A stretch of 64,000 bases of DNA from Phoronis australis (Eukaryota; Animalia; Phoronida), in contig NMRA01000001.1 of NCBI GenBank assembly GCA_002633005.1, positions 9,328 to 73,327 of the forward strand, given 5' to 3'. The position numbers and the translations under genes are program-made. Each line of letters opens with the position of its first letter. Within the stretch, counting starts at the first letter, position 1. The notes beneath the pieces were generated by a model that worked only from the letters and a program-made list of their open reading frames with translations, ran no database searches and was not told where the DNA came from. Shown in pieces: positions 48,652 through 51,758 of the stretch.

Positions 48652-49540
48652 GTAGGTATAGTTCAATCCTGTAAGTTAATGTTACTACTGCGTTTTCTTG
48701 ACGATAATAATTTAAAGTCTTTTGAAGATGTCTGTAGGAATTTTTCGTAAGACTTTGTCTTTGGTTGCACGAAATTAGCTAATGGACACTGTGAAATGTC
48801 ATGAAAAGCAGATTTTTTGCTCATGTGTAAAAAAATCTCACCCAATCTACTTAGAATGAATTTGTATACTAGAAGCTGTGCTCCTTACAGGTTTTAGTTT
48901 ACAGTCTGTTATCAATTTTCTGTCATTTTTCTAAACCGTTAAAGAAAATTAGTGCACTTAATAGTGAGATTGACAGTTCAAATAAAAGGACAAAACTCCT
49001 TGTCAACTGAATCAAGAGATACTTGATTGTCCTCTCTATAAGGGCACCGTCTGTGCACCTGTAGCACAATGTATTGTAACAATAATGCAACAGTACCCAT
49101 AATGCAGTAATTCCCATAATTCAACGTCACCTATTCATCAGCACCCATACTGCAGCAATATCCACAACGTAAGTGACCTGTGGTTCAGAAACTTTTCTTG
49201 ACTCATGCTGATGTGTCCTTGAGCAAGCAACTGATTCAGTTGTGTTTTCCAGTGATTTTACTTCACAGTTAATGGCTAGCAGTCATTTCTGGGCTATAAC
49301 ATATACTGGGCTAGTGTTCCTCTCAGAGAGCTGAAAAAATCCTGACACTCGCACTGTAGGAACAAGAGTTTGTAACTGACAAAGTGAGCTAGATGGCTCA
49401 TGAAAAAATCCCCATGTTACTGCTTTCATGGTTCCACGACTCACACCCCTGTGCACAAGGAAAGAGCCTCAGTAGCAAAATATTCCAGGTTATGATGGTA
49501 CTTCAGTTTCCCATCATGCATTGTTACCCACAATTCTTAG

Positions 49541-49733
49541 GTTAAAAATGACACAGTGGTATCTGTGTGGAAGTACCATTGGGAGGGGCAGGAGCGACTT
49601 TACAAGGATGAACTGAGTAACGTCACTAGGCAAGGTTACCGGGTTGTTCTGTCCTCATGTTGGTATCTCAACGTGATTGATTACGGTGCCGATTGGCAGA
49701 AGTTTTATGGCTGCGAGCCCACAGGCTTCAATG
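49541..49733 (+). CDS. HEXB: Beta-hexosaminidase mutually exclusive exon A
   Basis: ttcttag|[71 protein letters not shown], 193 nt. Confidence 0.92.
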
Positions 49734-50725
49734 GTGAGTTAACCAGTACACGCATGCCCCACTGATGCTTAGCGCCCTCTTTAGGCTAATTGTTTAACTG
49801 CTGGATCTTCTATGCAGTAGTCTCCTGCATGCAGTGGTTCCTGGTTTTGGCTGACACATGCAATCGGCTCTGGTAACAAAGATCTCTTCTAGATGATGGT
49901 CTCTCCAATCAAAACAAATAGCTTGATTACAAGAACATCTTCATTGCTTGCAGCATGTGCAATTAAATGTAAAAACCTGAAATCTTTTTTTTGAATTCCA
50001 TTCTCAAGGATTGAGAGGTCTGCCTGAAAGAGGGTGTTTCTGTCAACTTGGTGCTCGTTTCCGACTCAAGAGCACAGACTTTTCTTATGGGATGTCTGCA
50101 ACCTCTGAAACAGATTAGCCACAGTAACGGCATTCTTTTGCAAATGAGTTGTTTGAAGTTGATGCAACTTACTGTCCAGTCTTGATATCAAAGTAAAGAT
50201 CAGTTCATGGTCAACACCGTGTCCAGCATCTGCAAGCTCATTGTCTTCTGTATGACAAACATCATCCTACCATGAGAGGGAGCACATGATTTTCACTGTT
50301 GTTTATATGATAGTATTAATATCCATCGGGTGCCTGACGTCTGTAGAATCCCACCGTCACATGACAGTCACGTATCTGTCACTCCTATAATGTGGCACTG
50401 GCATTTCTATGCCCCAAATTCCCACAGTAGGACGTTGTGTCCTGTCTTTATGTATTATGCATTGGGCGTTGTTGGAGCTAACAGTTGGCGGTCATCATTA
50501 ACTGTAACTCTTAAACACACAGACACATGATTCTGGTATGAAAGGGTTAACCATGATCCTTCACAAATGTAAACTACAGGAGGCGCCACTGTCTTAAACT
50601 GGCAATCATCCTCCCAGCAAAAGATAAACACAATGTAATGGAACACATGACTCTATACATGTCTGTTCAACTGAGTTTGTCCAATTTCTCCATTGTGAAC
50701 CACCATTACTTGTACTCTTCCTCAG

Positions 50726-50903
50726 GCCAAGGCGGACACAGTTGTGCATGTCTGGAAGGATGGTTCTAATTGGCCGAAGGAGATGTCCAAGGTAGTCAGC
50801 ATGGGCTACCAGTCCATTCTGTCCTCGTGTTGGTACCTGAACTATATTGCCTATGGTAACGACTGGAGGCAGTACTACAACTGTGAGCCGTACAACTTTA
50901 ACG
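50726..50903 (+). CDS. HEXB: Beta-hexosaminidase mutually exclusive exon B
   Basis: cctcag|[66 protein letters not shown], 178 nt. Confidence 0.92.
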
Positions 50904-51758
50904 GTGAGTCTGCTGCTGGAAATGGTCCCATGCTCTAGTCTGTCTCTTATCACACACTTCACAGCATTCATGTGAGAATTAATCAAATTTCAAGTACTGA
51001 CCACAGCAGTAAGTTCACAGAATACGGTTTGAGTTTCCATCTTTTCTTTTCTGTTACATTGCTTGGCTTCCCTGTGATTTTCAGGTTGGTGTTTACTCCA
51101 GCTTGCACATTGTGGTTGCTGCGTTAGCACTTTCTGACTCGTGTATTCATTGTGGTAGGGACTACAACTTAGATGACCAGACCTGTGAACACGGTCACGT
51201 TACAAATCGTCTACTTGTAATTCCCTTCTGTTTCTGTACTTCAGTAACTTGGTTAAGTAGCACAACTTTGTGTTGTGCTACCATTTGGTTGTTGTGCTTT
51301 TGGTTTTCTGCATCGGTCTCCTGTCTGTTGTCATGGATGCTGGTGCATTATGGGATGGGTGAAGGTGCATTATGGGATGGATGAAGGTTTATTATGGGTA
51401 CTGACAAAACAGGATTTGCTTGCCCCACCTGAAATATGACTTTTGGCAAACCAATGAATAAAATTTCTAACAAAATAACTGGTCAAATTTTCCTAACATT
51501 TTTTTCAGTCCAATCCAGTGGTTCTGTGATACAATGGCAGCAACTTATAGTTTTCAAAAATTGAAAAAAACATAATCAAAGCTGTTTTGTTTGGTCAAAA
51601 CTTGTCGGAAATAAATTGTAAAAACAATCGCAACGAGAAAGGTTTTCTCTGAAATTCTGGCGGTGTTCCTATGATCAGATATTTGACTTTTTTAATCTGA
51701 AAACCACTGTCCTCATTGGCCTTTGAATTCACCCGTGGCACCGATCATCTCTGCCTAG

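Follow-up and report, generated by a model that had tools for sequence, protein, structure and literature searches.

Three homologous exons lie in tandem between two constitutive exons of one Phoronis australis gene, and the question raised by this locus is how a transcript comes to carry one of them and not the others. The locus was analysed in a window of 64,000 nucleotides, the host gene lying on its + strand. The first-pass annotation had proposed that one intronic docking site pairs with competing selectors before the second and third exons, leaving the first exon as the default.

Exon cluster and its usage in RNA

The host gene encodes a GH20 beta-hexosaminidase (Pfam PF00728, E 3.5e-28 for the exon at 42660-42971), and its catalytic domain together with its similarity to animal HEXA/HEXB places it in the HEXA/HEXB-type GH20 family. 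Among the proteins compared, its closest named relatives were nemertean and gastropod proteins, with 66-67% identity, which points to a probable lophotrochozoan host. All exons of the cluster are on the + strand. The constitutive exon E7 (48573-48651) precedes it and ends in phase 0, and the constitutive exon E9 (52743-52833) follows it and starts in phase 1. Between them lie the alternative exons A (49541-49733, 193 nt), B (50726-50903, 178 nt) and C (51759-51942, 184 nt), which encode WYL-N-V, WYL-N-Y and WYL-D-Y, respectively. The three exons are tandem homologues (protein identity to exon A, 56% for B and 45% for C) with phase 0 to 1 boundaries and lengths that are all 1 mod 3. In this frame, all five combinations other than a single exon (none, two or three) run into a stop codon that lies 175-517 nt upstream of the final junction, so nonsense-mediated decay could alone hide double inclusion; such decay has been given as a route to exclusivity for small exon clusters (PMC6071210). 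Exon B has the best pyrimidine tract of the three, with 16 pyrimidines among 20 acceptor positions compared with 13 of 20 for each of A and C.

Exon usage was assessed in three raw RNA runs labelled as the same species, about 18-19% of each run being sampled. All six expected junctions (each exon to E7 and to E9) were present, including those of A with 7 and 7 reads. From E7 to A/B/C, the runs gave 1/67/8, 3/71/11 and 3/175/12 junction reads (7/313/31 summed, n=351); from A/B/C to E9, they gave 0/87/22, 2/90/14 and 5/185/11 (7/362/47 summed, n=416). Of the 767 junction reads in total, A accounted for 14 (1.8%), B for 675 (88.0%) and C for 78 (10.2%). No A-B, A-C, B-C or E7-E9 (skipping) joint was found among the junctions listed for the three runs, the threshold of at least three reads from at least two starts per run being such that joints with one or two reads per run could be hidden. 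The junction reads bear out the proposed mutually exclusive splicing: A, B and C are mutually exclusive in steady-state RNA, with B dominant and A rarest. They also refute the proposal that A is the default, given its 14 reads versus 675 for B. A further contig set (X5), which we guess to be RNA-derived, contained the forms with B and with C and lacked the form with A. The share of C in outgoing junctions was 20%, 13% and 5.5% across the three runs. This share differed between runs (36/215 versus 11/201, p 0.0003), with reads that are not independent and with tissue and genotype confounded; for incoming junctions, under the same non-independence and confounding, the comparison was 19/161 versus 12/190 (p 0.09).

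Further features were observed elsewhere in the window. The E6-E7 intron carries on its - strand a nested coding-like sequence (44950-46869). It has a signal-peptide-like start, is interrupted by an in-frame stop near 45205 and includes a Cys-rich part reminiscent of fibrinogen or neurexin-type domains; a Pfam search with two pieces of the sequence gave no match. A 347-nt direct duplication at 46171-46869, whose copies are 98-99% identical and separated by an N at 46517, probably represents two haplotypes assembled in tandem. The strongest long-range inverted match of the window, about 31110-31170 with about 31930-31990, extends across some 780 nt and an N gap at 31531, and its arms may mark the termini of a small transposon. 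A roughly 190-nt element occurs twice near the 5' portion of the gene (37563-37750 and 39151-39350); the copies, near-identical by eye, likely belong to a dispersed repeat.

Complementarity between the introns before exons A and C

The predicted duplex joins block D in the intron before exon A (49082-49155, + strand; 5' arm) with block S in the intron before exon C (51333-51403, + strand; 3' arm), the end of S lying 355 nt from exon C. Each block repeats the same ZNF143-like motif in a short tandem array, the two arrays having opposite orientation: D is a degenerate array with a period of 17, and S consists of three 22-nt units, 86% alike, with the motif reversed. Six of the seven matches to the 11-nt motif core in the window fall in 49096-51376, with 1.19 matches expected in the whole window. 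Of the helices described earlier, 49091-49103 with 51391-51403 (13/13) and 49112-49120 with 51369-51377 (9/9) proved fully complementary; 49139-49148 does pair with 51333-51342, but at 9 of 10 positions, one C-A mismatch breaking the full match that had been described. A weaker colinear extension takes D to about 49191 and begins S at about 51305. The permissive alignment of 49091-49191 with 51305-51403 has 72 Watson-Crick, 5 G-U, 2 A-C and 10 other columns, the last being transversions. This mismatch pattern is not a clear signature of selection, and because S is rich in G and U, the counts in a strand test of G-U versus A-C carry little signal.

The D x S duplex has a predicted energy of -59.9 kcal/mol, and S is the best partner of D, ranking first among 2532 windows of 75 nt (z -7.5). 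No dinucleotide shuffle of either arm reached this value (0/600 for each), and 0-7/600 did when the shared motif cores were held fixed, shuffle statistics to be read with the caveat that the limits of D and S were set after the match was seen. The D x S complementarity is above chance and beyond the shared motif, and the proposed colinear complementarity between the two introns thus passed the shuffled controls. After opening costs the duplex retains a net energy of -20.7, the best of six pairings tested, and it is predicted to dominate the ensemble of 49040-52040 with 46.5 expected pairs, global folding of a pre-mRNA being a rough guide only. These predictions agree with the proposal of a long duplex able to loop out A and B.

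Within 48652-52742, D x S is also the top Watson-Crick inverted alignment, its score being reached by 0-2 of 150 shuffles. When the window was divided into half-overlapping 4.1-kb tiles, 2-4 of the 26 others (1-3 distinct loci) contained an inverted alignment at least as good, so such pairs are not rare in this genome. None of the compact D x S helices beats the shuffled best (-13.6 versus a null best of -16.1). An initial duplex map, computed with a low length penalty, consisted of long chains of weak helices and was set aside.

The claimed selector of exon B (50085-50100, + strand) does pair with D as described, by 14 Watson-Crick pairs with one gap (-16.9 kcal/mol), but at chance level. Across the entire A-B intron, the lowest energy that any window gave with D was -30.0 compared with a shuffled-intron mean of -30.8, and 176 of 305 shuffles were as good; the claimed selector has 0.0 expected pairs with D in the 3-kb ensemble, and it is not counted as functional here. 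Two further motif copies lie in the 3' splice-site region of exon A (49508-49537, + strand) and are oriented like D, not like S, so that no selector was found before each exon. With the B selector at chance level, nothing competes for D, and neither a Dscam-type docking/selector system nor the looping out of A to select B is supported. The model in which D serves as a docking site of the Dscam1 exon-6 type for rival selectors before B and C, A being the default, fits the geometry for C: D lies upstream of the cluster and has a distal selector partner in the predicted duplex. With optimised offsets, the pairing of D with the 50040 window ranks in the top 0.6% of windows. Given the chance-level B selector and A as the rarest exon, this model is largely refuted and we consider it very improbable.

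Other partners of S were considered. The motif copies at 49508-49537 can pair with it (-27.1 kcal/mol, net -12.6, top 1% of windows), with 0.0 expected pairs in the ensemble, where D competes. A candidate alternative partner lies just 3' of the C donor (51950-51989, + strand; -43.0, net -14.3). With it, S could act as a two-way switch, looping out A and B with D (use of C) and looping out C with the downstream partner (use of B). The latter pairing has an 11-pair core, occupies the same S nucleotides as the 13/13 helix and appears in the minimum-energy fold; however, it has 0.6 expected pairs in the ensemble, and the G/U-rich S pairs about equally well with several unrelated windows, so that the switch seems to us improbable. 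The pairing of S with 50372-50405 (-33.0) was rejected, since its net energy after opening is +0.8; in the other haplotype it weakens from -35.5 to -27.6. The best compact helix, between 49581-49596 in exon A and 51973-51987 (-19.0), joins G-rich with pyrimidine-rich sequence, is reached by 2 of 77 shuffles and was set aside.

Origin of the blocks and proposed mechanism

The caveat in the first-pass annotation that the blocks resemble the ZNF143/Staf DNA site was well founded. Compared by eye, the reverse complement of an S unit shares 13 of 14 letters with the SBS1 probe of PMC3627581. A degenerate site pattern drawn up for this analysis matched the window 27 times; nine of these matches are in 49077-51400, of which six are upstream on the + strand and three in S on the - strand. 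To judge from their letters, D and S may well be ZNF143-type sites by origin, which is compatible with later use as an RNA duplex. A genomic contig of set X1 and four reads of set X7 match only 51344-51379, with foreign flanks, indicating that the motif pair recurs elsewhere. The main rival view takes D, the pre-A copies and S for ZNF143/Staf-type DNA sites in homotypic clusters, possibly an intronic enhancer for the host gene or for the opposite-strand nested sequence, and leaves exon choice to splice-site strength and decay alone; the complementarity would then be a by-product of opposite site orientation. The clustered pattern matches, the SBS1 likeness, the contig and reads with foreign flanks and the occurrence of the motif as a single site at 743-755 and at 14383-14395 are in line with this view. 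It accounts less well for a pairing that exceeds the expectation with fixed cores and for a colinear match that runs past the motifs. Moreover, no pile-up of transcript starts was seen at the blocks in the raw RNA runs examined and no Rfam family was found in 48000-54500, and the analysis in human cells centres on promoter-proximal sites (PMC3627581). No transcription start or small-RNA gene of the kind expected near SBS1 clusters is thus seen close to the blocks, though they may still form an enhancer; taken together, we regard the explanation by DNA sites as rather unlikely. The negative Rfam search also led us to reject a non-coding RNA identity of the blocks.

Contig depth over the blocks is close to that of their flanks, so they are not high-copy repeats; given this depth and no target-site duplication by eye, a high-copy repeat or transposon-end identity was rejected. 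D and S might still be neutral remains of a short inverted duplication or of a minisatellite expansion, playing no part in splicing or transcription. Both blocks are tandem arrays, the window as a whole giving 59 tandem-repeat rows, equal inverted matches occur at 1-3 other loci in the 64 kb, and the mismatches show no clear G-U bias beyond base composition. Against this stand the placement of D and S, which bracket exactly A and B of a proven mutually exclusive cluster, the near-flank depth, and a comparable architecture with unrelated sequence at another locus (L018, described below). We consider a neutral origin unlikely. Sequence variation was examined in DNA contigs from two runs of one sample and in sparse intronic reads of two RNA runs. 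D holds one variant (49126), which is unpaired in the predicted duplex and changes its energy by 0.6 kcal/mol; the variant density of D (1/74) did not differ significantly from that of the adjoining flank (6/88, p 0.13). Around S, at an RNA depth of 1-2 and with a single haplotype in the DNA sample over 50480-51750, no variants were seen. These data speak neither for nor against constraint on D and S.

The reading that we prefer, and hold tentatively, is one-of-three splicing with B as default, in which D x S loops out A and B in favour of C and decay clears the rest. Its observed basis is the cluster of three exons, the joining of one of the three in RNA, the ratios of usage and the intron complementarity. 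B would be the default through its strongest acceptor and would usually be committed before S is transcribed. A D x S duplex of 70-110 nt, if formed in time, would bring the upstream exon near C and loop out A and B in a minority of transcripts, so that C is used; S may also mask the acceptor of exon A. Transcripts with none, two or three of the exons would be frameshifted and subject to nonsense-mediated decay, so strict exclusivity would need no competing selectors. The exon swap would tune a pocket that accepts or repels anionic substrates. A counterpoint is the low share of C, 10% of junctions, when the equilibrium ensemble is dominated by the duplex that would select it. With three exons and one strong candidate duplex, the compact cluster offers a small, testable minigene.

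The swapped exon in other animals and known systems

Among 26 protein pairs compared, those of sea urchins and teleosts being isoforms as annotated in databases, 10 differ over this exon: four sea-urchin pairs (two genes) and six of eight teleost hexb pairs, one of these six having differences at other places as well. Over this exon, the shrimp, prawn, tick, oyster and coral pairs among the 26 show no difference. After WYL, six of the eight teleost hexb pairs have N-R versus D-Y, as do four of four Epinephelus pairs, and five variants of the exon were seen in herring and four in Alosa sapidissima. The isoforms P0137/P0138, P0158/P0316 and P0120/P0298-P0301 are examples in which an alpha-like N-R exon and a beta-like D-Y exon are swapped, and swapped-exon teleost isoforms carry a loop resembling the alpha GSEP loop.

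In human hexosaminidase, N423-R424 of alpha and D452-L453 of beta decide the binding of anionic substrates (PMC3587417; see also PMC4774620), and the WYL-x-x segment lies in HEXA exon 11 (PMC11699244). By alignment to solved chains, the swapped exon corresponds to the segment with these residues. The residue pairs are N-V in A, N-Y in B and D-Y in C, arginine being present in none of them, and the exon C isoform is predicted to be the most beta-like. The swap in annotated sea-urchin and teleost isoforms is a stronger result than the intron duplex. It falls on the two residues by which the human enzyme accepts or repels sulfated or sialylated substrates (PMC3587417). The fish hexb isoform may be a natural version of engineered alpha/beta hybrids and would thus bear on fish Sandhoff models. 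Among the literature listings and abstracts searched, no account of a hexosaminidase with mutually exclusive or duplicated exons was found, though supplementary exon catalogues may list one. A reef-fish paper names hexb among its differentially spliced genes and gives no further detail in the passage concerned (PMC8933327), and a term search of a zebrafish hexb mutant paper (PMC6772114) gave no mention of isoforms or splicing.

A metagenome scan yielded 50 loci, none close enough for intron alignment; in six of them the exon gave multiple matches. Five of these have tandem copies, two each in L003, L012, L014 and L015 and six in L018; L014 and L015 have identical exon coordinates and both end soon after. 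The second match in L044 was rejected as a piece of an inverted neighbouring gene. L003, L012, L015 and L018 were tested for long-range duplexes. In L018, 821-844 pairs with 3384-3407 at 23 of 24 positions, linking a decayed first copy with an intronic element that lies about 375 nt upstream of the final copy (-23.8 versus a null best of -14.8 +/- 1.3; 0/54 shuffles). The element pairs more weakly with the other five copies (-19 to -28 kcal/mol). The geometry is that of D x S, in unrelated sequence, though the pairing could also be a relic of an inverted duplication. Stops interrupt copies 1 and 3 of L018, and copies 2-3 and 4-5 resemble a pair that was duplicated. The other three loci tested showed no significant exon-spanning duplex: nothing exceeded the null in L003 and L015, and the strong pairs of L012 all lie within one intron. 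L012 has an intron of about 32 nt (4484-4520) between its two exon copies, which suggests steric exclusion, the intron probably being too short for both copies to be spliced. In L014/L015, a single ZNF143-like site without a partner lies at 4599-4609, in the intron before the first exon copy.

A tree of the exon, built from 47 rows and 60 columns (one of the rows being out of frame, and four proteins and one decayed copy being excluded), with 6 of 44 branches starred and a bootstrap that is not settled, supports only two teleost exon clades, one sea-urchin clade and a few close pairs. It does not date A, B and C, nor does it show, outside those teleost and sea-urchin groups, whether the duplications were independent. 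With three copies at this locus and six in L018, five or more isoform variants in herring and two in many teleosts and in sea urchins, the idea arises that the charge-pocket exon is a recurrent duplication hotspot across animals, serving as an alpha/beta-like switch, whose last copies are rescued by independent, unrelated duplexes, here apparently derived from ZNF143-like sites. Both genomic loci with at least three copies have predicted long-range duplexes, unrelated to each other, about 360-375 nt before the last copy. We regard this idea as possible but doubtful.

Among known systems, human HEXA/HEXB share PF00728 with the host gene, and the swapped exon covers their WYL-x-x segment with its pocket residues; in humans two genes provide the two pockets, whereas here and in teleost hexb one gene has alternative exon copies. 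The ZNF143/Staf SBS1 sites (PMC3627581) resemble the blocks in 13 of 14 letters of an S unit and in occurring as several clustered copies. Unlike them, the blocks are deep intronic with no transcript start seen, and are candidate sites by sequence.

In the studies cited here, mutational proof of structure-guided exon choice comes mostly from insect genes. As in Dscam1 exon 6 (PMC6071210), the exons here are tandem duplicates and the intron before the first copy is predicted to pair with a later intron, looping out the copies between. In contrast to Dscam1, there is one credible partner (before C) and no selector before B or A, one exon is dominant, the frame of three exons allows enforcement by decay, and the gene is not from an arthropod. 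The Dscam1 balancers Ubs6.1-Dbs6.40 (PMC8791459) consist of an element upstream of a distal exon that pairs with the first-exon region, an arrangement that the candidate pairing of S with the exon A acceptor may share; such pairing can mask the first-exon acceptor and favour distal exons over first-come-first-served splicing. The balancers, however, depend on a docking/selector system and are proven by mutation, whereas the pairing to the exon A acceptor is predicted and weak in the ensemble. In srp exon 4 (PMC4691838), pairing aids the exon with the weaker splice site and the strong exon is included without pairing, as would be the case here; srp has a second, downstream pairing, for which this locus has only a candidate downstream partner. 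Since no full set of selectors, one for each exon, was found, D x S does not belong to the docking/selector class; by analogy, it would act like the distal-exon-promoting pairings of Dscam1 and srp, in which pairing compensates distal or weak exons (PMC8791459, PMC4691838).
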